Part shown: piece by piece, positions 23,740 to 39,882 of the stretch
Numbering within the stretch: the first letter of the stretch is position 1
How the letters are laid out: each line of letters starts with the position of its first letter
DNA from: Escherichia coli
Lineage (GTDB): Bacteria > Pseudomonadota > Gammaproteobacteria > Enterobacterales > Enterobacteriaceae
Length of the DNA: 64,000 nt
NCBI RefSeq assembly: GCF_044324785.1
Contig: NZ_CP172127.1
Direction: 5' to 3' (one strand)
The notes under the pieces: generated by a model
What the model was told of the DNA's origin: nothing
The model's input: only the letters and a program-made list of their open reading frames with translations
The model's database searches: none
Translations under genes and position numbers: made by a program

Positions 23740-24498
23740 TTATGCCTGGTGTAAAATAGTTAATACCGTGCGCAAATCATTTACCGAGATTTGCCCTGGT
23801 GCAGAGGCTTTTTTTACCGCACCAAAAGTTGCCGCCGAGCCAAATACTTCACCAGCCAGACGAGAAATTACGCCAGTTTTTGCCATCGACATCGTGATGA
23901 TTGGACGATCGGCATACTGCTCCTGCATCTCCAGGGTCGCGGCAAGCAACGTCAGCACATCGCTGGTACTTTGCGGCATCAGCGCAATCTTAGGAATATC
24001 GGCATCGAAGGACTGCATTTTGCGCAGACGGGCAATGATTTCTTCGGCTTCCGGCGTTTTATGGAAGTCATGGTTGGACATGACAACTTTCACATCATGC
24101 GCGTGGGCGTAGGCGACGGTTTCTTTAACCTGATCATCGCCGGTAAATAACTCCAGATCGATCATATCAACCAGGCCACTATCGATGGCTGCACGATTGA
24201 GTGCAATATAAGCCTCGGTGGAAATCGCCTGCTCGCCGCCTTCTTTGGCACTGCGGAAGGTAAACAGCAGCGGTTTTTCTGGCATGGTTTCACGGAGAAT
24301 TTTTGCTGCCGCCATGACAGACTCCACATTGGAGAGGTCGGCATAGTGGTCCACACGCCATTCCAGAATATCAAAGTCCGCTTCACGATAGGCGAGAGCT
24401 TCGGATTTCACGCTGGCGATATCTTTCGCCATCAGCGAGACGATGATTTTAGGTGCGCCCGTACCAATGACGAGATCTTTTACAGTTACGGTTTTCAT
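23740..24498 (-). CDS. aroD: 3-dehydroquinate dehydratase, type I
   Basis: 252-aa ORF; type I DHQase sequence recognised. Confidence 0.95.
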
Positions 24499-24528
24499 TT
24501 TTTACCCTTTCTGCACGCGGTCAGCCTG

Positions 24529-25395
24529 TCAGGCACCGAACCCCATGACCTGTTTAACATATTCCAGAGGGAAATCTTTGCCAGTCCATAACGTGAACTG
24601 TTCAGCCCCTTGCCACAACAACATGCCGTATCCATCAATCGTTTTGCAACCAGCTTGTTGCGCCTGCTGCAATAACTTCGTCATATGCGGGTTATACACG
24701 CATTCAGTGACCAGAAGTCCCGGATGTAACAGACTGATATCATTAACCAATGATTCATTCTCAAGGGGTTTCATGCCCACTTTTGTGCCATTGGTTAAAA
24801 TGTCGGCGGAAGCCAGAGCTTCAGCAAAGGCTTGCTGATCGGCGAGATCGGTAACCGTGACGACACAATCGGTGTTTTTGTTAACCCGTTGCGCGAAGGC
24901 GAGGGCTTTATCGAAGAATTCATCCCGACGGTTAAAGAGTTTAATTTCTTTTAAACCTTCAATTGCCCCCTGCGCGCCAATCGCCGTTGAGGCACCGCCG
25001 GCACCCAGCAGCACCATCGTTTTGCCTTTGATATCAAAACCGCTCTCTTTAATGGCGCGAATATGGCCCGTGCCGTCGGTGTTATAGCCACGCAGATAGC
25101 CATCATCATTAACGATGGTGTTGATGGCCCCCACCAGTTTGGCAGCTGGCGTTAATTCATCAACATATTCACATGCCAGTTGTTTGTTCGGCATCGACAC
25201 ACCAGTTCCGCGCATTTTGAGGGCTTTTAATCCTTCAATTGCTCCGGGAAAGCTATCGTTATCCACTTCAAAGGCCATATAGGTAAATGGCAATCCCGCT
25301 TTTTCTAAGGCTTTATTCTGCATTTCGGGCGATAAACTGTGGCGGATGGGATAGGCCATAAGCCCAATCAATTCGTATTTTGCGGTAACATCCAT
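24529..25395 (-). CDS. ydiB: quinate/shikimate dehydrogenase
   Basis: 288-aa ORF with Rossmann motif [10 protein letters not shown]; AroE paralogue. Confidence 0.92.
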
Positions 25396-25406
25396 AATTA
25401 ACTCCT

Positions 25407-26672
25407 TTAACCTCTATGCTTAATTGTGTTTAACCGGGTGCTAAATTTACGCTCGCCAAACCGCACATCATTTTCAGGAATAATGAAAACGCGGTAATAG
25501 CGGATAAAGACAATAATTGCGGTAATCAGGGCCAGCAGCGCGAAAGTAAAATCGAGAGCAATGATATATTGCAGACCGATGTTCGACAGATAACCGGTAA
25601 TCAGCGGAATAACAAAATTAGCCAGTCCACCCATCATCATATATATACTGGTGACTTTGGCTTTGCTTTTTGGGAAAAACTCTGACATGACCGAAACGCC
25701 GAGCTGTAAAATGCCGCCAGCTGCTGAGAAACCGATAACAAAGGCTCCGGCATTACACACCAATGGAGAAGGGTACAGGTAGATAATGGCAGCTGTTATT
25801 GTTGCCAGTGCAGAGTTAAATACATTAGCCCAGATGGGCCGGACCATTTTTTTCAGCAGTGCGGCAAAAATAAAGACACAGACCAGCGAACCCATACTGT
25901 AATAAGAGATGGTTTTTAATGCCTCAGCTTCTGACATACCAGCAAAAGCCATCGCATATTTGGGCATCCACACCACAATCACATAAAAGGTCGAGAATGC
26001 GGCTACACCGAACAGTACCGATGAAACACCTTCCAGCCAGACTAACGGTTTGCTGTTCATTTGCGGTAATTCATTAGCTACGCTGGCGTCCACCAACTGG
26101 CTGGGGAATTTGCTTTTCAACAGCATCAGCGTGATCAGTACAAACAGAATACCCGGAATAATCAGCCCATAGCCGTACCAGATGTTATTGAGCAACATAT
26201 AGCTCACCAGCATTGGGTAGAACATTTGTCCGAATGACACCATCGCTTTAACCAGTATGACCGCCGAACCAGAGGCTTTCGGAAAGCATTCCATGAGCGC
26301 GGGGTAGCCACCCGTATCCAGCGCTGAGTTAGCGATACCTACGCACACTGCCAGACAGTAGGCGAGAGTTAAATTCGGGCAAGCGGGAATACCAAAGAAG
26401 AATAGCAGATACATTATTACTGCCATTAATATCACCGCCCGACGACCAAACTTATCGGAGATCACACCGAAGAATAAAATACTGATCAATCGCCCCAAAC
26501 CGATACCGGAAATTAAATAGGCAATGCCCGCGTTGTCAGTGGAAAACTTTTCTGCCAGAGATGACATATTTTGGGCAAGCGTAATAACACTAATGCCGTG
26601 CAGGAAATAGCTGAAGTAAATACAAAGAACAGCCAGGATAAATGGCGTGCTGAAAGCCTTATTTTGAGACAT
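25407..26672 (-). CDS. ydiN: MFS transporter
   Basis: ORF track 25407..26678; start moved 2 codons to MSQNKAF, about 421 aa; 12-TMS-like hydrophobic profile. Confidence 0.8.
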
Positions 26673-26898
26673 TTTCACAGCTCCTTGCTGAAAGATAATT
26701 TCGTTACCGTACGTATTGTTCTCCGACGGTTTACATAATTACTATACTGAAGATGATTTTCTCTGGGTACATGGCATAAAGTTTATGTTTCCAGGAATAT
26801 TGCATGTCATAGTTTGTTTTTGATCGCGATTTTCCTTAGTTAGCGCAGAAAGAGTTATTTATCCGTAAGATCTTGCATGACCTGAAAAGAATATTGCA

Positions 26899-28113
26899 TT
26901 ACCCACCCGGAGCGACATTTTCCTTTAGCGAGTGATGCCGCGTTTTTTTGCGGCTGCGTAAGCCGATAAACAGTGCCAGTAAAAAGCCGATGGCAGCGAT
27001 GGCGGTATCGAACCACATAATATCGGCAATACTTCTTTGGGACAGATGAGCCGTAATCAACGGAATAGTAAAGGTCGCAATACTGCCCGCACTGTAATAG
27101 ATCCCTGTAGCTTTACCTTTAGCGTAAGGGAAACGTTCAGCCATTAACGTCAGGCCAATTTGCACAACACCTCCAGCAGAGGTAAAACCAATGACAAAAG
27201 CAAATATTATCACCACATAAAATGTGGGATGCAGGCAGACGGTAAACAGAGCAATAAATGAGATAAAGGTGTACAGCATGAGTAATGTTGTTGGGCGAAC
27301 GGTATTACGAATGAGTGGAGCGGTAATAAATACACAAAGCAGCGAACCCACGGTGTAGATACTGAGTAGTTTGATCGACATAGTGTATGACATGCCTGCA
27401 ACAAATTGTCCGTACTGTGCCAGCCACTGGCTAACCAGATAAAACGTTGCCATTGAGATATAGCCATATAAGGTATAACTGGCTAAATCGATAATTGAAC
27501 AGCGATGTTCCGTAGAGCTGGTGGTTTTCTTTATGACAGGTAAGCGACGACCCGGATGGGGTGGGAACGTACAACGGTATAAAAACAGAGCGTTAATAAA
27601 CATAATGCCTGCAGCAATCATAAAGGACCAACCGAACCACAGTTCAGCCCACACTAACAGGCTAATGATTAGCGGTAATAAAAATTGTCCGCTGGAAACA
27701 AATGCTTTAATTAAAATATTGGCTGTCCCAGGTGAGCGTGGAAAAGCTTCCATCAAACTGGGATAAGTGCCTGCATCGAGAAAACTGTTTGCCATTCCCG
27801 CCAGAAAGCCCAAAACATAAGCGATAATGATGTTATTGGTGTGCAGGATGCCAAAAAAGAAGGCCATATAGCAGCACATCCCGAGCATGATAAAAGGGCG
27901 GCGACCAAAGCGATCGGATAATAATCCTGCAAAAAGCAAGACACTTAATCGACCAATGCCCAGCGATGAGATAACTATCGAGACACCCGCGGCATTAGTC
28001 TGCCAAAGTGTCTCCAGCGAGGCCATATTCAGGCTCATCAAAATGACGCCCATACCATGCACCAGGTAATTAAAATACAACCCAAGTGCGGTAGGGTAAT
28101 AGGGATTTTTCAT
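26899..28113 (-). CDS. ydiM: MFS transporter
   Basis: 404-aa hydrophobic ORF, paralogous to ydiN. Confidence 0.82.
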   Translation of the reverse strand: MKNPYYPTALGLYFNYLVHGMGVILMSLNMASLETLWQTNAAGVSIVISSLGIGRLSVLLFAGLLSDRFGRRPFIMLGMCCYMAFFFGILHTNNIIIAYVLGFLAGMANSFLDAGTYPSLMEAFPRSPGTANILIKAFVSSGQFLLPLIISLLVWAELWFGWSFMIAAGIMFINALFLYRCTFPPHPGRRLPVIKKTTSSTEHRCSIIDLASYTLYGYISMATFYLVSQWLAQYGQFVAGMSYTMSIKLLSIYTVGSLLCVFITAPLIRNTVRPTTLLMLYTFISFIALFTVCLHPTFYVVIIFAFVIGFTSAGGVVQIGLTLMAERFPYAKGKATGIYYSAGSIATFTIPLITAHLSQRSIADIMWFDTAIAAIGFLLALFIGLRSRKKTRHHSLKENVAPGG

Positions 28114-28212
28114 AGGTTCTACTTAGCAAAGGTGCTTTAAAAAGTGAAGCGATGTTGTATCAGCATCCGTTCATTATTGTTGTAACAACGACAATTCCTT
28201 TCTGTGGAAAAA

Positions 28213-28569
28213 TTAACAAAGGCGCTCCAGATCGTGTGCATATAATTCAGCGGCTACCGATTGATAGATCTTCCAGTCAATAAAATTGCCATCAGGGTAG
28301 ACACGTTGAAACGCGGTTAAGTCAGGGAAAAAACGCATGGTGTTGTTGCCGATGCGGTTATTTATTTTCTCTATGATGGCATGAAGATGTTTTTTTCGTT
28401 GCTGTCGCATAGCCAACAGTTGCTCGACCACACGATCAGGAATGGCGCATTTGCCATTTTCCCACTGATGCCAGCTTTCACAGTCTCCGGTCTGGGCAAT
28501 CCAGGTCGCGCATTCATCAATAGTCATGGCAAAAATATGGCGAAGAGCCTGGAGTTCATAAGCGTTCAT
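28213..28569 (-). CDS. ydiL: DUF1870-type small protein, unknown function
   Basis: ORF track 28213..28596; internal ATG gives the 118-aa MNAYELQALRHIF protein. Confidence 0.75.
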   Translation of the reverse strand: MNAYELQALRHIFAMTIDECATWIAQTGDCESWHQWENGKCAIPDRVVEQLLAMRQQRKKHLHAIIEKINNRIGNNTMRFFPDLTAFQRVYPDGNFIDWKIYQSVAAELYAHDLERLC

Positions 28570-28706
28570 CGTGTAATGGCTGCATGAAATAAACAATAAA
28601 ATATAAATAACATTATCAGCCTGCTGACGGCTTGAAGAGAGTCACAGTATCTTGTGCAACATTATTGGAAAGCGTGAGGGGCGAGGTAGCGAAGCGGAAA
28701 AATGTT

Positions 28707-28812
28707 AAAAAAAAGCCCATCGTGGGAGATGGGCAAAGACTACACACAGCAATTCGTTGTTTCACTCAGGGGATTTCCATGCTTATAAATCAATATGTTG
28801 ATTTATAACCGT
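28707..28812 (-). ncRNA. rprA: RprA small regulatory RNA (Hfq-dependent, activates rpoS translation)
   Basis: minus-strand sequence ACGGTTATAAATCAACATATTGATTTATAAGCATGGAAATCCCCTGAGTGAAACAACGAATTGCTGTGTGTAGTCTTTGCCCATCTCCCACGATGGGCTTTTTTT recognised as RprA, including the terminal hairpin plus U-run; lies between ydiL and ydiK. Confidence 0.85.
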
Positions 28813-28997
28813 GAGCTAATAGTAGGCATACGGACTTTTTGCGTCGATCAGATTCGTCTCATTAGTTTAAAAACTGTAAAGAATTTGCGACAGGTACTAC
28901 CAGCTGAATGGCGGTAAGCAGGAAAATATGGGGAAGAGCAAGCAAATATCAATTAGCGGTGGTTAACAATCAGGCGGCAGAGCCGCCTGATGAGAAA

Positions 28998-30110
28998 TTA
29001 CTTATTCGGTTTCTCGATTTCGCCAAGTTCTTCGAGAATTTCTTCCGGTTGGTCCGTCGGCGGTGGGACTTCTTCCACCCACGCGGCAAACAGACGCCAG
29101 GAAACGGCTAACAGAACCGGACCAATAAACAGACCGATCATCCCGAAAGCAATCAAACCACCAATAACGCCAGAGAGGATCAGGATCAGCGGTAAATCGG
29201 CACCCATGCGAATTAACATTGGGCGGATGACGTTATCCAGCGTGCCAACCACACCGCTCCACACTAACAATACCGTTCCCCAGGTGGTATCGCCGGTCCA
29301 GTAGAGCCAGATAATCGCCGGAATCAGTACCGGCAACGGTCCAAGCTGGACAAGGCAGGAGAGGATCATTAACACCGTGAGCAACGTTGCATAAGGTACG
29401 CCGGATACGGCGAGGCCGATACCGCCAAGCACTGCCTGTACTAACGCTGTCACCACAACACCCAGCGCCACCGCGCGGATAGCCTGTGCCGCCAGCAGCA
29501 CGGCGGCATCTCCGCGAACGCCTGCCAGACGGGTTGCAAAATGGCGAATGCCTTGTGCCACCTGTTCACCGCGCCAGTACAGCAGGGCACTGAAGAGAAG
29601 CATCAGCGCACAATGCACCATAAAGCGCCCGATATGCGCCGCTTGCCCAACGAACCAGGTGGTGGTGGTGCCAATATAAGGGCGGACTTTCGCCATGATC
29701 GCCGTACCCCCCATATCCAGCAAGTTGTGCCAGCCTGCATATAGCTTCGCGCCAATCACCGGAATGGTATTAAGCCACGCCAGATCGGGTAACGTCATGT
29801 CACCGCTGGAAATAGCTTTAATTAGCGGACCGCTGCCATCGACAATACTGTTAACCAACAAGGCAATAGGGATGATAAACACCATCACTAATAACAGCGT
29901 CATCACCAGAACGGCGAGAGAGCGGCGGCCAAACATGATCTTTTGCAAACGTAACAATACCGGCCAGGTGGCGATAACCACCGTACCGGCCCATGCAAAG
30001 CCGAGAATAAAGGGTTGAACAATCCACAGACATGCCACAATCATGATGGCTAAAAACAGCACCGAAAGCAGAATTTGTGCGACATCCCTGGGCTGACGAA
30101 CATTTACCAT
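28998..30110 (-). CDS. ydiK: AI-2E/UPF0118 family membrane transporter
   Basis: 370-aa polytopic ORF. Confidence 0.85.
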   Translation of the reverse strand: MVNVRQPRDVAQILLSVLFLAIMIVACLWIVQPFILGFAWAGTVVIATWPVLLRLQKIMFGRRSLAVLVMTLLLVMVFIIPIALLVNSIVDGSGPLIKAISSGDMTLPDLAWLNTIPVIGAKLYAGWHNLLDMGGTAIMAKVRPYIGTTTTWFVGQAAHIGRFMVHCALMLLFSALLYWRGEQVAQGIRHFATRLAGVRGDAAVLLAAQAIRAVALGVVVTALVQAVLGGIGLAVSGVPYATLLTVLMILSCLVQLGPLPVLIPAIIWLYWTGDTTWGTVLLVWSGVVGTLDNVIRPMLIRMGADLPLILILSGVIGGLIAFGMIGLFIGPVLLAVSWRLFAAWVEEVPPPTDQPEEILEELGEIEKPNK

Positions 30111-30498
30111 AACTACTTTTCACCTTTTTTGTGCGTCAAATCGTCGACGCGACGTGAACACGCGAAACTCACCTGCATAATGATGAGCAATTTCAGCGGT
30201 TTTTAACAGGCCGATTCTGCCCTTAATTCTGATGGGCGTGTTAGAAAAAAATGTGGTACAACAACTCAGGCAACACGCAAACGATTTACTCGTCGTATTT
30301 CAAGTTGCATATGCTGCGGCTACGTTCGTTCACCCCAGTTACTTACTGTTGTAAGCTCCTGGAGTTCACTCGCTTGCCGCCTTCCTGCAACACGAAATCC
30401 ATAGAGTAAACAAACATCACCTTTCAGTGCGCTATTGCAGCAGCCTGAAAGAATAGTGTATCGACCTACATCACAGACCGCAGGAAAGGGTCAATATA

Positions 30499-33400
30499 AT
30501 GATTCCACAGATTTCCCAGGCACCCGGCGTCGTTCAACTGGTGCTTAATTTTTTGCAAGAGCTGGAGCAACAGGGGTTTACCGGCGATACGGCGACAAGT
30601 TATGCCGATCGTCTGACAATGTCGACCGACAACAGTATTTACCAACTTCTCCCCGATGCGGTGGTATTTCCGCGTTCAACCGCAGATGTGGCGCTGATCG
30701 CCCGTCTTGCCGCGCAGGAACGCTATTCATCGCTGATCTTTACCCCCCGCGGCGGCGGCACCGGCACTAACGGTCAGGCGCTCAACCAGGGGATTATTGT
30801 TGATATGTCCCGCCATATGAACCGCATCATCGAAATTAACCCTGAAGAGGGCTGGGTGCGCGTTGAGGCCGGGGTGATTAAAGACCAACTCAATCAGTAC
30901 CTGAAACCGTTCGGCTACTTTTTTGCGCCGGAACTTTCGACCAGCAACCGGGCAACGCTAGGCGGGATGATCAATACCGATGCTTCTGGTCAGGGATCGC
31001 TGGTCTATGGCAAAACGTCAGATCACGTACTTGGCGTACGTGCAGTGTTGTTGGGGGGCGATATTCTCGATACGCAACCTTTACCCGTCGAACTGGCGGA
31101 AACGCTGAGTAAATCCAATACCACAATCGGGCGAATTTATAACACGGTTTATCAACGTTGCCGTCAGCAACGCCAGTTAATCATCGACAACTTCCCCAAA
31201 CTTAACCGCTTTCTTACCGGTTACGATCTGCGTCATGTCTTTAACGATGAGATGACCGAGTTCGACCTGACGCGCATTCTGACAGGTTCAGAAGGGACGC
31301 TGGCCTTTATTACCGAAGCGCGGCTGGATATTACGCCCTTGCCTAAAGTGCGCCGTCTGGTGAACGTCAAATATGACTCTTTTGACTCTGCGCTGCGTAA
31401 CGCGCCGTTTATGGTTGAGGCGCGGGCGCTTTCGGTAGAGACGGTTGACTCAAAAGTGCTGAATCTGGCGCGGGAAGATATTGTCTGGCATTCCGTCAGC
31501 GAGTTGATTACCGATGTGCCAGACAAAGAGATGCTCGGGCTGAACATTGTGGAATTTGCTGGTGATGATGAGACGCTGATTGATGAGCGGGTAAATGCAC
31601 TCTGTGCGCGGCTGGATGAACTTATCGCCAGTCAGCAAGCAGGTGTGATCGGCTGGCAGGTATGCAGTGAGCTGGCAGGTGTTGAGCGTATTTATGCAAT
31701 GCGCAAAAAAGCCGTTGGTCTGCTTGGCAATGCCAAAGGTGCCGCTAAGCCAATTCCGTTTGCTGAGGATACCTGCGTACCGCCGGAACATCTGGCCGAT
31801 TATATTGCTGAATTTCGCGCGCTGCTCGACAGCCACGGCTTAAGCTACGGTATGTTCGGTCACGTCGACGCAGGTGTCTTGCACGTCCGTCCGGCACTGG
31901 ATATGTGCGATCCACAACAAGAGATTTTGATGAAGCAAATCTCTGATGACGTAGTGGCGCTTACTGCGAAATACGGTGGTTTGTTGTGGGGCGAGCACGG
32001 CAAAGGTTTTCGCGCTGAATACAGCCCGGCGTTTTTCGGTGAGGAACTTTTTGCAGAACTGCGCAAAGTGAAAGCGGCATTTGACCCGCATAACCGACTC
32101 AACCCAGGGAAGATTTGCCCGCCAGAAGGTCTCGATGCGCCGATGATGAAAGTGGACGCGGTGAAGCGCGGTACATTCGATCGGCAGATCCCCATTGCGG
32201 TACGCCAGCAGTGGCGTGGTGCGATGGAGTGTAACGGCAACGGTTTATGCTTCAACTTTGATGCCCGCAGTCCGATGTGCCCGTCGATGAAGATCACCCA
32301 GAACCGGATTCATTCACCGAAAGGGCGCGCAACGCTGGTGCGTGAATGGCTGCGTTTGTTGGCGGATCGCGGCGTTGATCCACTCAAACTGGAACAAGAA
32401 CTGCCTGAATCCGGCGTCAGTTTGCGGACGTTAATTGCCCGCACGCGCAATAGCTGGCATGCGAATAAAGGCGAATATGACTTCTCACACGAAGTCAAAG
32501 AGGCGATGTCGGGCTGTCTGGCCTGTAAAGCTTGTTCGACCCAGTGCCCCATCAAAATTGATGTGCCGGAGTTTCGCTCTCGTTTTCTGCAGCTCTATCA
32601 CACCCGTTATTTACGCCCGCTGCGCGACCACCTCGTCGCTACGGTCGAGAGCTACGCGCCGCTGATGGCACGCGCGCCGAAAACCTTTAACTTCTTCATT
32701 AACCAGCCGCTGGTGCGCAAACTCTCGGAAAAACATATTGGCATGGTTGATTTGCCGCTGCTGTCGGTCCCCTCGCTACAACAACAAATGGTGGGGCATC
32801 GCTCGGCAAACATGACGCTGGAACAGCTTGAAGCTCTCAATGCAGAGCAGAAAGCGCGCACGGTGTTGGTGGTGCAGGACCCCTTTACCAGCTATTACGA
32901 TGCGCAAGTGGTGGCGGATTTTGTCCGTCTGGTTGAAAAATTAGGATTCCAGCCTGTGTTACTGCCATTTTCGCCAAATGGCAAAGCCCAGCATATCAAA
33001 GGCTTTCTTAATCGTTTTGCGAAGACGGCGAAAAAGACGGCGGATTTCCTCAACCGTGTGGCGAAGCTGGGGATGCCAATGGTGGGCGTCGATCCGGCGC
33101 TGGTACTTTGTTATCGCGATGAATATAAACTGGCGCTGGGCGAGGAACGTGGCGAGTTTAACGTCTTACTGGCGAATGAATGGCTCGCAAGCGCACTTGA
33201 GTCACAGCCAGTGGTTACAGTCAGCGGTGAATCATGGTATTTCTTTGGTCACTGTACCGAAGTTACCGCCTTGCCGGGCGCGCCAGCACAATGGGCGGCA
33301 ATATTTGCCCGTTTTGGCGCGAAACTGGAAAATGTCAGCGTGGGTTGCTGCGGCATGGCAGGGACTTACGGACATGAAGCGAAAAACCATAAAAATTCGC

Positions 33401-33555
33401 TCGGGATCTATGAGTTATCCTGGCATCAGGCGATGCAGCGACTGCCGCGTAATCGCTGTCTGGCGACCGGATATTCCTGCCGTAGTCAGGTCAAACGGGT
33501 TGAAGGCACGGGGGTACGCCATCCTGTGCAGGCTTTACTGGAGATTATTAAATGA
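30499..33555 (+). CDS. ydiJ: FAD-linked oxidoreductase with C-terminal Fe-S/CCG domains (reported D-2-hydroxyglutarate dehydrogenase)
   Basis: 1018-aa ORF; N-terminal GlcD/FAD-binding type 4 region, central CxxCxxCxxxCP motif (CLACKACSTQCP) and C-terminal Cys-rich region. Confidence 0.88.
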   Translation: MIPQISQAPGVVQLVLNFLQELEQQGFTGDTATSYADRLTMSTDNSIYQLLPDAVVFPRSTADVALIARLAAQERYSSLIFTPRGGGTGTNGQALNQGIIVDMSRHMNRIIEINPEEGWVRVEAGVIKDQLNQYLKPFGYFFAPELSTSNRATLGGMINTDASGQGSLVYGKTSDHVLGVRAVLLGGDILDTQPLPVELAETLSKSNTTIGRIYNTVYQRCRQQRQLIIDNFPKLNRFLTGYDLRHVFNDEMTEFDLTRILTGSEGTLAFITEARLDITPLPKVRRLVNVKYDSFDSALRNAPFMVEARALSVETVDSKVLNLAREDIVWHSVSELITDVPDKEMLGLNIVEFAGDDETLIDERVNALCARLDELIASQQAGVIGWQVCSELAGVERIYAMRKKAVGLLGNAKGAAKPIPFAEDTCVPPEHLADYIAEFRALLDSHGLSYGMFGHVDAGVLHVRPALDMCDPQQEILMKQISDDVVALTAKYGGLLWGEHGKGFRAEYSPAFFGEELFAELRKVKAAFDPHNRLNPGKICPPEGLDAPMMKVDAVKRGTFDRQIPIAVRQQWRGAMECNGNGLCFNFDARSPMCPSMKITQNRIHSPKGRATLVREWLRLLADRGVDPLKLEQELPESGVSLRTLIARTRNSWHANKGEYDFSHEVKEAMSGCLACKACSTQCPIKIDVPEFRSRFLQLYHTRYLRPLRDHLVATVESYAPLMARAPKTFNFFINQPLVRKLSEKHIGMVDLPLLSVPSLQQQMVGHRSANMTLEQLEALNAEQKARTVLVVQDPFTSYYDAQVVADFVRLVEKLGFQPVLLPFSPNGKAQHIKGFLNRFAKTAKKTADFLNRVAKLGMPMVGVDPALVLCYRDEYKLALGEERGEFNVLLANEWLASALESQPVVTVSGESWYFFGHCTEVTALPGAPAQWAAIFARFGAKLENVSVGCCGMAGTYGHEAKNHKNSLGIYELSWHQAMQRLPRNRCLATGYSCRSQVKRVEGTGVRHPVQALLEIIK

Positions 33556-33962
33556 TATGGAAACGAAAAATCACCCTGGAAGCACTGAATGCCATGGGTG
33601 AAGGAAACATGGTGGGGTTACTGGATATTCGCTTTGAACATATTGGTGATGACACCCTTGAAGCGACAATGCCAGTAGACTCGCGGACAAAGCAGCCTTT
33701 CGGGTTGCTGCATGGAGGGGCATCCGTGGTACTGGCCGAAAGTATCGGTTCCGTTGCCGGTTATTTATGTACTGAAGGTGAGCAAAAAGTGGTTGGCCTG
33801 GAAATCAATGCTAACCACGTCCGCTCGGCACGAGAAGGGCGGGTGCGCGGCGTATGCAAACCGTTGCATCTCGGTTCGCGTCACCAGGTCTGGCAGATTG
33901 AAATCTTCGATGAGAAAGGGCGTTTGTGCTGTTCGTCACGATTGACGACCGCCATTTTGTGA
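33552..33962 (+). CDS. menI: 1,4-dihydroxy-2-naphthoyl-CoA thioesterase (hotdog fold)
   Basis: 136-aa ORF, PaaI-type thioesterase; ATGA overlap with ydiJ. Confidence 0.88.
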   Translation: MIWKRKITLEALNAMGEGNMVGLLDIRFEHIGDDTLEATMPVDSRTKQPFGLLHGGASVVLAESIGSVAGYLCTEGEQKVVGLEINANHVRSAREGRVRGVCKPLHLGSRHQVWQIEIFDEKGRLCCSSRLTTAIL

Positions 33963-34061
33963 CGTTGTCACCAGAAAAGTGTGACGCATATTGCTTTTGG
34001 TCATTATCTGCACAGTAAACGGTGGTATACTGTGCAGGTCTTGTCTAAAAGCGAGGATGCT

Positions 34062-34250
34062 ATGTCTACTCAACTTGATCCCACCCAGCTGGCCATTGAA
34101 TTTTTACGCCGTGACCAGAGCAATCTTTCACCTGCCCAATATCTCAAACGTCTGAAACAACTAGAACTTGAATTTGCTGACCTGCTTACTCTCTCTTCTG
34201 CTGAATTAAAAGAAGAAATCTACTTTGCCTGGCGTCTGGGCGTGCATTGA
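34062..34250 (+). CDS. ydiH: small protein of unknown function
   Basis: ORF track 33981..34250; internal ATG gives the 62-aa MSTQLDPTQLAIEFLRR protein. Confidence 0.7.
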   Translation: MSTQLDPTQLAIEFLRRDQSNLSPAQYLKRLKQLELEFADLLTLSSAELKEEIYFAWRLGVH

Positions 34251-34439
34251 TCCTGACTTAATGCCGCAAGTTCGCCATATCGACCTGGATTAATCTCCGT
34301 CCAGGTTCGATGGCCTTCTTAATACTGCTTATCTACCCGCCTGATATTGTTCAAAAATAATACTAATCGCAGTTTGTGTTAAAACGGCGGGTTAGCTTTA
34401 TGAGATTATTCTTATCGCCCCTTCAAGAGCTAAGCCACT

Positions 34440-34515
34440 GAGAGTGCCGGAGATAAGCGCCGGATGGGGTAGAAACCCTTAAGCCTGTGTCGCACAGACT
34501 TAAGGGTTTTCTTAT
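34440..34515 (+). ncRNA. rydB: candidate small RNA ending at an intrinsic terminator (possibly RydB, reported between ydiH and sufA)
   Basis: strong hairpin CCCTTAAG-loop-CTTAAGGG followed by TTTTC about 225 bp after ydiH and about 290 bp before sufA; 5' end not determinable from sequence; RydB identity is from memory of its map position, not sequence recall. Confidence 0.3.
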
Positions 34516-34738
34516 TTCTAAACGCTGCACTTTTTTACCTATCTCTTAAATAGTCATTTTCAATACAACTTTTTCTTTTTCATCACAGCCTTAATGCTCC
34601 TTAGATAATAATCATTATCTAACAATGAGATACCTAATTCTTAGCGTGCCTGTTAACCCACACATCAGGGTCTATGCTTATTAAAAGCAGGAAAAAAGCA
34701 TGTTTTACGGTAAAGCCCCTGCGTTTGCTGGGTTGAAC

Positions 34739-34753
34739 TGATAATCATTATCA
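34739..34753 (+). promoter_or_regulatory. Fur box in the sufA promoter (TGATAATCATTATCA)
   Basis: canonical GATAAT/ATTATC inverted repeat about 45 bp upstream of the sufA ATG; the suf operon is Fur-repressed. Confidence 0.7.
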
Positions 34754-34798
34754 CTAACATGCTGTTATACGCTGAAAGCGATGAAGTGAGGTAAATCG

Positions 34799-35167
34799 AT
34801 GGACATGCATTCAGGAACCTTTAATCCACAGGATTTCGCCTGGCAGGGCTTAACGCTGACACCCGCAGCCGCTGTCCACATACGCGAGCTGGTGGCAAAG
34901 CAGCCGGGTATGGTCGGCGTGCGCTTAGGCGTGAAGCAAACGGGATGCGCGGGCTTTGGCTATGTGCTCGACAGTGTTAGCGAGCCGGACAAAGACGATC
35001 TGCTGTTTGAACACGACGGCGCGAAGCTGTTTGTCCCGCTGCAAGCGATGCCGTTTATTGATGGCACGGAAGTCGATTTCGTTCGTGAAGGACTTAATCA
35101 GATATTCAAATTTCACAACCCTAAAGCCCAGAATGAATGTGGCTGTGGCGAAAGCTTTGGGGTATAG
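34799..35167 (+). CDS. sufA: Fe-S cluster A-type carrier
   Basis: 122-aa ORF with C-terminal CGCGESF motif. Confidence 0.95.
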
Positions 35168-35175
35168 GCGGTACT

Positions 35176-36663
35176 ATGTCTCGTAATACTGAAGCAACTG
35201 ACGATGTCAAAACCTGGACCGGCGGCCCGCTGAATTATAAAGAAGGATTCTTCACCCAGTTAGCCACCGATGAGCTGGCAAAGGGGATAAACGAAGAGGT
35301 GGTGCGCGCAATTTCGGCGAAGCGTAATGAGCCGGAGTGGATGCTGGAGTTTCGTCTCAATGCCTATCGCGCATGGCTGGAGATGGAAGAACCGCACTGG
35401 TTGAAAGCGCACTACGACAAGCTGAATTATCAGGATTACAGCTACTACTCAGCACCATCGTGCGTTAATTGTGACGACAACTGCGCGTCTGAACCCGGCG
35501 CGGTGCAGCAAACTGGCGCGAACGCCTTTTTAAGTAAAGAGGTGGAGGCGGCGTTTGAGCAGTTGGGCGTTCCCGTGCGGGAAGGCAAAGAGGTGGCGGT
35601 GGATGCCATTTTCGACTCTGTTTCGGTTGCCACCACTTATCGCGAAAAACTGGCGGAGCAGGGAATTATTTTCTGTTCCTTTGGCGAGGCGATCCACGAT
35701 CACCCGGAACTGGTGCGTAAATATCTCGGCACCGTGGTGCCGGGGAATGACAACTTCTTTGCCGCACTTAATGCGGCGGTAGCCTCTGACGGTACGTTTA
35801 TTTATGTGCCTAAAGGCGTGCGCTGCCCGATGGAACTTTCCACCTATTTTCGTATTAACGCGGAAAAAACCGGGCAGTTTGAGCGCACCATTCTGGTGGC
35901 CGACGAAGACAGCTACGTCAGCTACATTGAAGGCTGTTCCGCTCCGGTGCGTGACAGCTATCAGTTACACGCGGCGGTGGTGGAAGTCATCATCCATAAA
36001 AACGCCGAGGTGAAATATTCCACGGTACAAAACTGGTTCCCTGGCGATAACAACACCGGCGGTATTCTCAACTTCGTCACCAAGCGTGCTTTGTGCGAAG
36101 GCGAAAACAGCAAAATGTCATGGACGCAATCAGAAACCGGGTCAGCGATTACGTGGAAATATCCCAGCTGCATTTTGCGCGGCGATAACTCCATTGGTGA
36201 GTTTTACTCAGTGGCGCTGACCAGCGGTCATCAGCAAGCGGATACCGGCACCAAGATGATCCATATCGGTAAAAACACTAAATCGACCATTATCTCGAAA
36301 GGGATCTCTGCCGGACATAGTCAGAACAGTTATCGCGGCTTAGTGAAAATCATGCCGACGGCAACCAATGCGCGCAATTTCACTCAGTGCGACTCAATGC
36401 TGATTGGCGCTAATTGTGGGGCGCATACCTTCCCGTATGTCGAATGTCGCAATAACAGCGCACAACTGGAGCACGAGGCAACGACATCACGTATTGGTGA
36501 AGATCAACTGTTTTACTGCCTGCAACGCGGGATCAGCGAAGAAGACGCCATCTCGATGATTGTTAACGGTTTCTGCAAAGACGTGTTCTCAGAACTGCCG
36601 CTGGAATTTGCCGTTGAAGCACAAAAACTCCTCGCCATCAGTCTTGAACACAGCGTCGGATAA
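35176..36663 (+). CDS. sufB: Fe-S cluster assembly scaffold SufB
   Basis: ORF track 35137..36663; internal ATG gives the 495-aa [14 protein letters not shown] protein. Confidence 0.93.
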
Positions 36664-36672
36664 GGAATAAAC

Positions 36673-37419
36673 ATGTTAAGTATTAAAGATTTACACGTCA
36701 GCGTGGAAGATAAAGCTATCCTGCGTGGGTTAAGCCTCGACGTTCGTCCCGGCGAAGTTCACGCCATTATGGGGCCAAACGGTTCGGGCAAAAGTACCTT
36801 ATCGGCAACGCTTGCCGGGCGAGAAGATTATGAGGTGACGGGCGGCACGGTTGAGTTCAAAGGCAAAGATTTGCTTGCGCTGTCGCCGGAAGATCGTGCA
36901 GGTGAAGGCATCTTTATGGCCTTCCAGTATCCGGTGGAAATTCCTGGCGTCAGTAACCAGTTTTTCCTGCAAACGGCACTTAATGCGGTGCGCAGCTATC
37001 GCGGCCAGGAAACGCTCGACCGCTTTGATTTTCAGGATTTGATGGAAGAGAAAATCGCTCTCCTGAAGATGCCGGAAGATTTATTAACCCGTTCGGTAAA
37101 CGTTGGTTTTTCCGGCGGCGAGAAAAAGCGCAACGATATTTTGCAAATGGCGGTGCTGGAACCGGAGTTATGTATTCTTGATGAGTCGGACTCCGGGCTG
37201 GATATTGACGCATTAAAAGTGGTTGCCGATGGCGTGAACTCGCTGCGTGACGGCAAGCGTTCATTCATCATTGTTACGCACTACCAACGCATTCTCGACT
37301 ACATCAAGCCTGATTACGTCCATGTGCTGTATCAGGGACGAATTGTGAAATCCGGCGATTTCACGTTGGTCAAACAACTGGAGGAGCAGGGTTATGGCTG
37401 GCTTACCGAACAGCAGTAA
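36673..37419 (+). CDS. sufC: Fe-S cluster assembly ATPase SufC
   Basis: 248-aa ORF with Walker A GPNGSGKST. Confidence 0.95.
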   Translation: MLSIKDLHVSVEDKAILRGLSLDVRPGEVHAIMGPNGSGKSTLSATLAGREDYEVTGGTVEFKGKDLLALSPEDRAGEGIFMAFQYPVEIPGVSNQFFLQTALNAVRSYRGQETLDRFDFQDLMEEKIALLKMPEDLLTRSVNVGFSGGEKKRNDILQMAVLEPELCILDESDSGLDIDALKVVADGVNSLRDGKRSFIIVTHYQRILDYIKPDYVHVLYQGRIVKSGDFTLVKQLEEQGYGWLTEQQ

Positions 37420-38665
37420 CGCGCTGCAACAGTGGCATCACTTGTTTGAAGCTGAAGGGACAAAACGCTCACCGCAAGCACAGCAGCATTTACAACAATT
37501 GCTGCGTACCGGACTGCCGACACGGAAACATGAAAACTGGAAATATACGCCGCTGGAAGGGCTGACCAATAGCCAGTTTGTCAGTATTGCGGGAGAGATA
37601 TCCCCACAGCAGCGTGATGCCTTAGCGTTAACGTTAGACGCTGTGCGGCTGGTATTTGTCGATGGACGTTACGTGCCTGCGCTGAGCGATGCAACTGAAG
37701 GCAGCGGATATGAAGTGAGCATTAACGACGACCGTCAGGGGTTACCCGACGCTATTCAGGCGGAAGTGTTTCTGCATTTGACGGAAAGCCTGGCACAAAG
37801 CGTGACGCATATCGCCGTGAAGCGCGGTCAACGACCGGCAAAGCCATTGCTGTTAATGCATATCACCCAGGGCGTGGCAGGTGAAGAGGTGAACACTGCC
37901 CATTACCGACATCATCTGGATCTGGCGGAAGGTGCCGAAGCAACGGTGATCGAACATTTTGTCAGCCTTAATGATGCTCGTCACTTCACCGGCGCACGGT
38001 TCACTATCAACGTCGCAGCGAACGCCCACTTGCAGCATATCAAGCTGGCGTTTGAAAACCCGGTCAGTCACCACTTTGCCCATAACGATTTGTTGCTGGC
38101 TGACGATGCCACCGCATTTAGCCACAGTTTCCTGCTGGGTGGCGCAGTGTTACGACACAACACCAGTACGCAACTCAATGGCGAAAACAGCACGCTGCGG
38201 ATCAATAGCCTGGCGATGCCGGTGAAAAACGAGGTGTGTGATACCCGTACCTGGCTGGAACACAATAAAGGTTTTTGTAACAGCCGACAGTTGCACAAAA
38301 CTATCGTCAGCGACAAAGGCCGCGCGGTGTTTAACGGTTTGATCAACGTCGCGCAGCACGCCATCAAAACGGATGGTCAGATGACCAACAATAATCTGCT
38401 GATGGGCAAACTGGCGGAAGTGGATACGAAACCACAGCTGGAAATCTATGCAGATGATGTGAAATGCAGCCATGGCGCGACGGTGGGGCGTATTGATGAT
38501 GAACAGATGTTCTATCTGCGCTCGCGCGGGATCAATCAGCAGGATGCCCAGCAGATGATCATTTACGCCTTCGCTGCCGAACTGACGGAAGCACTGCGTG
38601 ATGAGGGGCTTAAACAGCAGGTGCTGGCCCGAATCGGTCAACGGCTGCCAGGAGGTGCAAGATGA
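37394..38665 (+). CDS. sufD: Fe-S cluster assembly protein SufD
   Basis: 423-aa ORF; 26-bp overlap with sufC. Confidence 0.93.
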
Positions 38666-39882
38666 CTTATTCCGTCGACAAAGTGCGGGCCGACTTTCCG
38701 GTGCTTTCGCGTGAGGTAAACGGTTTGCCGCTGGCTTATCTCGACAGCGCCGCCAGTGCACAGAAACCGAGCCAGGTGATTGACGCCGAGGCCGAGTTTT
38801 ATCGTCATGGCTACGCGGCGGTGCATCGCGGTATTCATACCTTAAGCGCCCAGGCGACCGAGAAAATGGAGAACGTGCGCAAGCGGGCATCGCTGTTTAT
38901 TAATGCCCGTTCGGCGGAAGAGCTGGTGTTCGTCCGCGGCACGACGGAAGGGATCAATCTGGTCGCCAATAGCTGGGGTAACAGCAATGTGCGGGCGGGC
39001 GATAACATCATCATCAGTCAGATGGAGCACCACGCTAACATTGTTCCCTGGCAGATGCTTTGCGCACGCGTTGGCGCAGAACTGCGTGTGATCCCGCTCA
39101 ACCCCGACGGTACGCTGCAACTGGAGATGCTACCTACGCTGTTTGATGAGAAAACTCGCCTGCTGGCAATTACTCATGTCTCCAACGTACTTGGCACAGA
39201 AAATCCACTGGCGGAAATGATCACGCTTGCGCACCAGCATGGCGCAAAAGTGCTGGTGGATGGCGCTCAGGCGGTGATGCATCATCCGGTGGATGTTCAG
39301 GCGCTGGATTGCGACTTTTACGTGTTCTCCGGGCATAAACTGTATGGCCCCACCGGAATTGGCATTCTTTATGTGAAAGAAGCCTTGTTGCAGGAGATGC
39401 CGCCGTGGGAAGGGGGCGGTTCTATGATCGCCACCGTCAGCCTGAGTGAAGGCACTACCTGGACCAAAGCACCATGGCGGTTTGAAGCCGGTACACCCAA
39501 TACCGGGGGCATCATTGGTCTTGGCGCGGCGCTGGAGTATGTTTCGGCGCTGGGGCTTAATAACATAGCCGAGTATGAACAGAATCTGATGCATTACGCG
39601 CTATCACAGCTGGAATCTGTACCGGATCTCACTCTCTATGGCCCGCAGAACAGGCTTGGCGTTATTGCTTTTAATCTCGGTAAACACCACGCCTATGATG
39701 TTGGCAGTTTTCTCGATAATTACGGCATTGCTGTGCGTACCGGACATCACTGCGCTATGCCATTAATGGCCTATTACAACGTCCCTGCGATGTGTCGGGC
39801 GTCGCTGGCCATGTATAACACCCATGAAGAAGTGGATCGTCTGGTGACCGGCCTGCAACGTATTCACCGTCTGCTGGGATAA
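38662..39882 (+). CDS. sufS: cysteine desulfurase SufS (PLP-dependent)
   Basis: 406-aa ORF with class V aminotransferase motifs ([12 protein letters not shown]) and active-site Cys region; ATGA overlap with sufD. Confidence 0.95.

Follow-up and report, generated by a model that had tools for sequence, protein, structure and literature searches.

What does a single polypeptide that joins a GlcD-type FAD dehydrogenase to an iron-sulphur (Fe-S) half oxidise, and where does it send the electrons? The question is raised by an open reading frame (ORF) in a 64,000-nucleotide stretch of Escherichia coli DNA (assembly GCF_044324785.1, contig NZ_CP172127.1; the whole stretch is hereafter the window), which an initial annotation, made from the letters alone, had named YdiJ and described as a 1018-amino-acid fusion of such a dehydrogenase with Fe-S and CCG modules. 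The limits, length and name given to the ORF proved exact, the name agreeing with both its protein family and its identity to the K-12 protein. The gene, product and physiological role of ydiJ are already established, and the gene is near-universal in E. coli. We place a probability of about 85% on the reading that the ORF is ydiJ and encodes an FAD- and Fe-S-dependent D-2-hydroxyglutarate (D-2-HG) dehydrogenase, whose electrons leave via the C-terminal half with a quinone as their most likely acceptor.

Against NF049975, the NCBIfam equivalog for "D-2-hydroxyglutarate dehydrogenase YdiJ", the protein scored 1729.9 bits (cut-off 1350), residues 1-1016 aligning with positions 1-1017 of the 1018 in the model; an equivalog score of this size over the full length, together with the length of the ORF, is far beyond chance. 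The reading frame opens with an ATG preceded by a purine-rich stretch, GCAGGAAAGGG; the closest in-frame stop codon upstream is at 30454, with no other start codon between. YdiJ of E. coli K-12 (b1687, NP_416202.1) is of equal length and aligns without gaps, with 1008 of 1018 residues identical, and the RefSeq name of this syntenic gene is D-2-hydroxyglutarate dehydrogenase. The ten conservative-site substitutions in the window protein relative to K-12 were G204S, R280P, Q343K, A359T, H379Q, R390S, S779A, M854V, A906V and E965K. The nucleotide sequences differ at 62 sites, which amount to 52 synonymous codon changes and 10 non-synonymous ones, and conserved cysteines and motifs are all spared; accordingly the 11 conserved cysteines and both ferredoxin motifs described below are unaltered between the two proteins, which also share the same neighbours (ydiK, rprA, menI, ydiH and sufA). 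Judged by these changes, the copy in the window is intact and under purifying selection, and of 5426 complete E. coli genomes, 5423 carry ydiJ DNA.

For the 99%-identical K-12 protein, the literature has shown the substrate, product and specificity, the presence of FAD and at least one [4Fe-4S] cluster, and a requirement for both halves in vivo. Samsonov et al. (2022) purified the E. coli and Pantoea enzymes as homotetramers of 110-kDa subunits with a Km of 83 µM for D-2-HG, which is converted to 2-oxoglutarate (PMC9504171). Activity was undetectable on L-2-HG, D/L-malate, D/L-lactate, D/L-tartrate, D/L-glycerate, glutarate and pyruvate, a substrate list that does not include glycolate (PMC9504171). 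Of the two substrates that the initial annotation had proposed for assay, D-2-HG is thus borne out by published work whilst D-lactate is not a substrate of K-12 YdiJ. Knock-outs of ydiJ build up D-2-HG to 4.2 g/L, or 25 g/L when serA is over-expressed (PMC9504171); the rise is alike after deletion of the GlcD part, the GlpC part or the whole gene, and the accumulation in ydiJ mutants is suppressed by deletion of serA (PMC12297413, Nature Communications 2025). Genomic context pointed the same way: of seven distant homologue loci examined, two have a serA gene just upstream in the same orientation (L007, 3515-4744; L012, 2693-3940), encoding phosphoglycerate dehydrogenases of the E. coli type (NF008759, 662 and 606 bits, cut-off 404), and the YdiJ homologue of L007 (P0126) scored 1454 bits, above the YdiJ equivalog cut-off. 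As far as gene order can show it, this adjacency is independent support for a SerA-YdiJ metabolic couple, in which YdiJ clears the D-2-HG that SerA makes during serine synthesis, a role of relevance to serine biosynthesis and to engineering the production or removal of D-2-HG.

The N-terminal half is a soluble flavin domain of the VAO/PCMH (GlcD) type, with both PF01565 and PF02913 above their gathering scores. The FAD_binding_4 region matched structures of LctD, LDHD and human D-2-HG dehydrogenase (D2HGDH); a family profile (alignment A1) searched against the PDB was aligned to LDHD (8jdc) and LctD (7qh2), and the FAD-oxidase_C region contains the motifs GHVDAGVLHV and GEHGKG. In the C-terminal half, Fer4_8 was recovered at residues 577-687 with 28.6 bits against a cut-off of 27, rising to 30.9 bits on the isolated half, so that the absence of any Fe-S or CCG domain there, named in the initial annotation as grounds for abandoning the fusion, was not what was found. 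Of the four Pfam domains it had expected, FAD_binding_4, FAD-oxidase_C and Fer4_8 were present; CCG was recovered only through GlpC homology and fold.

That homology is substantial. The NCBIfam GlpC model matched residues 664-1016 on model positions 51-398 of 401 (E 4e-31), and BLASTP against K-12 GlpC gave E 2e-12 over 366 residues covering both CCG halves, whereas GlcF was a much weaker match to the C-terminal half (E 0.008). The proposed likeness to a glycolate oxidase GlcD-GlcF system collapsed into one chain hence stands as regards the fusion, though the closest E. coli relative of the C-terminal half is GlpC rather than GlcF. The GlpC and GlcF equivalog scores all fell below their cut-offs (GlpC, NF008369/TIGR03379, 108.3 against 278 and 45.5 against 279.9; GlcF, NF008434, 15.2 against 333); by these scores YdiJ is a homologue of GlpC and GlcF and not an orthologue.

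Structure prediction, which the initial annotation had suggested as a check, supported the same relationship. AlphaFold2, supplied with a 90-sequence alignment, modelled residues 545-1018 confidently (mean predicted local distance difference test score 96.1, predicted template-modelling score 0.93). A Foldseek search of the PDB with this model returned Mycobacterium smegmatis EtfD (9ojn) as the top match (E 2.6e-5), with a LutA model and a number of HdrB chains next in rank. The model has the HdrB-like double-CCG fold, and on the basis of these matches the C-terminal half is predicted to be built like the HdrC/HdrB, HdrD and EtfD lineage, with a ferredoxin domain plus a double CCG. A sequence search of the PDB with the C-terminal half gave matches at chance level only, and in the profile search with alignment A1 the N-terminal GlcD columns dominated, so that no residue-level alignment to EtfD or HdrB was obtained.

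Which cysteines could hold clusters was assessed from conservation. A search with the C-terminal half against 1.84 billion representative sequences yielded 3313 matches at E<=1e-3, of which 462 reached E<=1e-30, the top ones being mostly fusions of the YdiJ kind of 940-1090 amino acids. The conservation sample consisted of 87 full-length homologues that are 31-55% identical in the C-terminal half, and the set of closest homologues (>=89% identity) was not used. Eleven cysteines (578, 584, 594, 673, 676, 679, 683, 919, 950, 951 and 994) were present in 85-87 of the 87, whilst C871, C987 and all N-terminal cysteines were variable. The central motif singled out by the initial annotation, CLACKACSTQCP, is the sole CxxCxxCxxxCP in the protein. 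The first ferredoxin motif has three cysteines rather than four, so that the two such motifs (eight cysteines) of a dicluster ferredoxin are represented by one canonical copy and one atypical copy. The spacing C-x5-C-x9-C(P) recurred in 85 of the 87 homologues, and this constancy marks it as a fixed feature of the family and not a decayed motif.

The cysteine-rich C-terminal segment noted by the initial annotation is also present, the last 100 residues containing five cysteines (C919, C950, C951, C987 and C994) with the CCG triplet at residues 950-952 (nucleotide 33346) within GCCGMAGTYG. C919, C950, C951 and C994 were each retained in 85-86 of the 87 homologues, the spacing across the family being C-x30-CC-x38-44-C. 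The five-cysteine motif of HdrB, CX31-39CCX35-36CXXC, is complete in neither half: the second has four of the five, the first cysteine of the terminal CxxC of GlpC being replaced by glycine, and the first has none, with the 'GC', 'KCCG' and 'STC' of GlpC replaced by 'DP', 'PNGK' and 'ALV', respectively. Invariant in this cysteine-less half are D794 and K829 (D250 and K285 of the C-terminal half in alignment A1). The description of the C-terminal half as Fe-S/CCG modules is hence right as to fold, with the qualification that only one CCG half keeps its cysteines and that the first ferredoxin motif is atypical.

A survey based on AlphaFold2 predicts a pair of 4Fe-4S clusters together with a single 2Fe-2S cluster in YdiJ; the supplement of the AlphaFold2 metal-site preprint contains no YdiJ ligand list. 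In EtfD, cluster D3 is bound by one cysteine of motif I and three of motif II, and D4 by the converse (PMC13083937). Applying this usual dicluster wiring to YdiJ, the most likely ligand sets would be C594, C673, C676 and C679 for one cluster and C578, C584 and C683, three cysteines only, for another, with a third cluster most likely at C919, C950, C951 and C994. We infer the three clusters, their ligands and an EtfD-like wire geometry from this analysis. Chemoproteomic data are consistent with part of the assignment, in that C673 and C683 behave as Fe-S ligands, the first ferredoxin motif being termed 'incomplete' in that study (10.1101/2021.04.01.438105). EtfD also provides a precedent for a CCG half with four cysteines, which can carry a linear [3Fe-4S] cluster, and its homologues FadF and DgcB likewise do without the first CCG cluster (PMC13083937). 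The map of three, four and four conserved cysteines, with a cysteine-less first CCG half holding an aspartate and a lysine in an EtfD-like fold, offers concrete targets for mutagenesis.

From these elements a route for the electrons can be proposed. SerA forms D-2-HG by reducing 2-oxoglutarate whilst oxidising 3-phosphoglycerate, and YdiJ oxidises it back to 2-oxoglutarate at its N-terminal GlcD/VAO-type FAD domain (residues 1 to ~540). Electrons would then exit via the GlpC/HdrD/EtfD-like half (residues ~570-1018). This half consists of a ferredoxin-like domain with seven conserved cysteines, most likely carrying two clusters, and, C-terminal to it, a double-CCG fold of the HdrB kind; here a cysteine set remains in the second half only, where it most likely holds the third cluster. 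The three clusters would form a linear wire, spaced ~8-9 Å apart as in EtfD, with the FAD and the acceptor at opposite ends. As terminal acceptor we regard as most likely a membrane quinone, reached through peripheral membrane association, since YdiJ has neither a transmembrane helix nor a haem domain. A quinone is favoured, as our best guess, because the Fe-S half is needed in vivo, the D2HGDHs that depend on electron-transferring flavoprotein (ETF) lack such a half, and quinone use has been reported for a related D-lactate enzyme. The last of these is PP4737, described in work cited in PMC12297413 as using FAD, Fe-S clusters and quinone, and a quinone has been proposed for YdiJ by analogy with it (PMC12297413). 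EtfD, the structural relative, reduces menaquinone and has its clusters spaced 8-9 Å apart (PMC13083937).

Several observations weigh against this reading or parts of it. As regards the clusters, earlier work, as cited in later papers, describes YdiJ as isolated with FAD and a single, probably [4Fe-4S], cluster; published biochemistry so far amounts to one cluster, and C594 was not ligand-like in the chemoproteomic study (10.1101/2021.04.01.438105). The Pfam CCG model (PF02754) failed to match the whole protein at E<=1 and, with the C-terminal 459 or 268 residues taken alone, failed at E<=10 as well, and no precomputed PF02754 match was present in the 120 closest homologues; E. coli GlpC and GlcF, used as positive controls, each showed two CCG stretches (E 3e-34 and 8e-31). 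Because GlpC homology and structure both recover CCG, the missing match does not mean that the fold is absent, and we regard the Pfam hidden Markov model as too distant from the YdiJ branch. As regards the acceptor, all activity assays used the artificial dyes phenazine ethosulphate and dichlorophenolindophenol, and the authors of that study call the physiological acceptor unknown (PMC9504171), in agreement with the initial annotation, which had found the acceptor not to be evident from the sequence. No transmembrane segment was found in YdiJ (maximum 19-residue Kyte-Doolittle mean 1.34), and the protein was earlier described as putatively cytosolic (PMC9504171). EtfD/HdrDE-type enzymes have an N-terminal transmembrane domain with haem b and a quinone site, where YdiJ has its soluble FAD domain, and it is through its haem-b membrane domain that EtfD reaches menaquinone (PMC13083937). 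Furthermore, docking of the flavin donor in EtfD is believed to take place at the CCG end, which in HdrDE is the terminal reductase site (PMC13083937); the direction of electron flow in YdiJ consequently cannot be taken from homology.

The rival that survives best retains the same enzyme and sends its electrons to a soluble partner, namely an ETF-like flavoprotein (YdiQ/YdiR or FixAB), a ferredoxin or a flavodoxin. It draws on the lack of a transmembrane helix, on the recovery of active recombinant enzyme from the soluble fraction (PMC9504171), on the formally unknown acceptor, on the exchange of electrons between the CCG clusters of EtfD and the FAD of ETF, and on ydiS, a member of an ETF-like cluster, lying upstream in the same window. 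Yet D2HGDHs that depend on ETF have only the GlcD domain, whereas YdiJ brings its own Fe-S half, which is required in vivo; the homologous multidomain D-lactate dehydrogenase is, by that citation, a quinone user; and ETF genes adjoin ydiJ in none of the seven homologue loci examined. We consider a soluble partner unlikely on balance. Far less probable is a C-terminal CCG site that acts as a catalytic reductase, as in HdrB/HdrD, coupling D-2-HG oxidation to a small soluble molecule such as a disulphide: Hdr chemistry requires two solvent-exposed noncubane clusters with bridging cysteines, one of the two is wholly lost in YdiJ and the other is left with four of five cysteines, and E. coli has no known small-molecule acceptor of this sort. 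The alternative raised by the initial annotation, a glycolate oxidase or D-lactate dehydrogenase in a single polypeptide, suggested by the GlcD model match (E 2.2e-56) and by paralogues of ~940 amino acids that may be of the D-lactate type (1075-1130 bits, below the 1350 cut-off and separate from the YdiJ equivalog group), is already largely refuted by GlcD, GlcF and GlpC scores far under their cut-offs (191 against 568, 15 against 333 and 108 against 278), by the inactivity of K-12 YdiJ on D-/L-lactate and ten other acids and by the D-2-HG that knock-outs accumulate.

The favoured route to a quinone leaves room for a more specific and rather doubtful proposal as to how an enzyme of this kind might reach it. 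YdiJ-type proteins could be an offshoot of HdrD/EtfD devoid of membrane domain and haem, in which the cysteine-less CCG half (Asp794, Lys829) serves as a quinone pocket beside an unusual four-cysteine CCG-2 cluster (noncubane or linear 3Fe-4S), the C-x5-C-x9-CP motif carrying a second non-standard cluster. Were the cysteine-less CCG half such a pocket, this would explain anchor-free quinone reduction by GlpC, GlcF, LutA and type-E SdhE.

The coordinates of ydiJ, its domains and its neighbours are collected in the table.

Table. Features of the ydiJ locus and of the encoded protein, in window coordinates
Feature	Position	Strand	Evidence
ydiK, divergent AI-2E family transporter	28998..30110	-	NF008216, 687.6 bits (cut-off 305)
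ydiK-ydiJ intergenic region with ydiJ leader, 388 bp	30111..30498		Three mismatches to K-12
Two ACATCAC heptamers, one on either side of a 7-nt inverted repeat; putative sites of GcvB pairing	30414..30420, 30468..30474	+	In the last 85 nt before the ydiJ start
ydiJ coding sequence, 1018 aa plus stop, D-2-HG dehydrogenase	30499..33555	+	ORF, NF049975, K-12 identity
FAD_binding_4 (PF01565), VAO/GlcD-type, aa 52-192	30652..31074	+	E 3e-38, 131.1 bits (gathering score 26.4)
FAD-oxidase_C (PF02913), cap/substrate domain, aa 281-539	31339..32115	+	E 2.7e-68, 230.8 bits (gathering score 21.2), full model length
First ferredoxin motif, atypical, C578-x5-C584-x9-C594-P595	32230..32283	+	Three Cys in 86/87 homologues
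Second ferredoxin motif, canonical, C673-x2-C676-x2-C679-x3-C683-P (CLACKACSTQCP), aa 673-684	32515..32550	+	Within Fer4_8; 86-87/87 homologues
First CCG-equivalent half-domain, Cys-less, ~aa 785-880	32851..33138	+	GlpC alignment; no conserved Cys in 87 homologues
Second CCG half-domain, ~aa 909-1000, C919-x30-C950C951-x42-C994	33223..33498	+	Aligns to CCG-2 of GlpC and GlcF
menI (ydiI), 1,4-dihydroxy-2-naphthoyl-CoA hydrolase	33552..33962	+	NF007631, 312.2 bits (cut-off 226)

The gene order in the window is that of K-12 (ydiL, rprA, ydiK, ydiJ, menI, ydiH, sufABCDS). The divergent arrangement with ydiK and the size of the gap between the genes were as first annotated; a shared promoter region there had been an inference, and a consensus scan of the gap detected no sigma-70-like promoter on either strand. 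Locus L006, whose YdiJ homologue shares 55% identity over the C-terminal half, likewise has AI-2E and ydiJ genes in divergent arrangement. In the ydiJ leader, the inverted repeat CTTTCAG/CTGAAAG (30421-30451) lies between two heptamers, each perfectly complementary to the GUGAUGU of K-12 GcvB R1, and Table 2 of PMC8534726 includes ydiJ among the GcvB targets with experimental support. RNAduplex gave -26.5 kcal/mol for the leader with GcvB R1, a marginal value given that 41 of 1000 shuffles and 67 of 1000 random windows were as good; RNAduplex with full-length GcvB was meaningless as a pairing test. The heptamers are put forward as a lead to GcvB sites. As a further observation on its expression, ydiJ serves as a supercoiling-sensitive, relaxation-repressed reporter gene (PMC12782930).

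Downstream, the menI start overlaps the ydiJ stop by four nucleotides (ATGA, 33552-33555); the two genes are probably co-transcribed, and the overlap suggests translational coupling. The linkage was considered as a clue to a menaquinone acceptor and set aside: menI was downstream in none of the seven distant homologue loci, which makes the overlap a local enterobacterial arrangement and weak evidence. Genes for the small RNAs RprA (28705-28812, minus strand, 118.5 bits) and RydB (34417-34477, plus strand, 81.6 bits) flank ydiK-ydiJ-menI-ydiH, as in K-12. Between 4000 and 28900 the window contains ppsA, fadK, ydiF, selO and ydiS, an ETF-like ydiQRST neighbourhood whose products are candidate soluble electron carriers, with no functional link to ydiJ known.

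Some peculiarities of this copy were also seen. From 24000 to 39700 the window is identical to its closest genome, strain N3 (NZ_CP031609.1), except for a patch at 31500-34000 with 57 mismatches; in N3, ydiJ has a 1-nt indel (window 30743) and is annotated as a frameshifted pseudogene, whilst the window copy is intact. The patch spans the 3' two-thirds of ydiJ and menI, and its best identity among the 5426 complete E. coli genomes was 98.4%. It looks like a recombinant, unsampled allele, and its changes are mostly synonymous. In the genome searches (5426 matching places, or 5423 with a shorter query), two of the places were on plasmids.

Among known systems, E. coli GlpC and GlcF, the Fe-S/CCG subunits of anaerobic glycerol-3-phosphate dehydrogenase and of glycolate dehydrogenase, respectively, share with the C-terminal half of YdiJ the order of modules, a dicluster ferredoxin domain and then a pair of CCG halves, and GlcF, like YdiJ, has a single cysteine in the last element of its CCG-2. 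They differ in being separate subunits with a canonical first CxxCxxCxxxCP, whereas YdiJ has C-x5-C-x9-CP and a cysteine-less first CCG half. M. smegmatis EtfD (PDB 9ojn; PMC13083937) has five transmembrane helices, haem b and a menaquinone site and receives electrons from ETF; YdiJ, 13-16% identical in sequence to EtfD and to archaeal HdrB, HdrC and HdrD, has no membrane domain and possesses its own flavin dehydrogenase. Classical D2HGDHs (Pseudomonas stutzeri; human, PDB 6lpn) catalyse the same reaction on the same VAO/GlcD-type FAD fold (6lpn_A, E 4.3e-21) and are 23-25% identical to the N-terminal half, yet they are about half the length of YdiJ, lack the Fe-S half and pass electrons to ETF and ETF-quinone oxidoreductase. 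The PP4737/Dld-II type (Jiang et al. 2017, J Bacteriol 199:e00342-17, as cited in PMC12297413) is described there with the same multidomain plan and D-lactate as substrate. PP_4493 of Pseudomonas putida, also called YdiJ, is the same GlcD and GlpC fusion with 51.1% identity to the E. coli protein, and its knock-out accumulates D-2-HG (PMC12297413); it acts in D-lysine catabolism, with lysine and 2-aminoadipate as inducers (bioRxiv 10.1101/450254), whereas E. coli YdiJ recycles a by-product of SerA.

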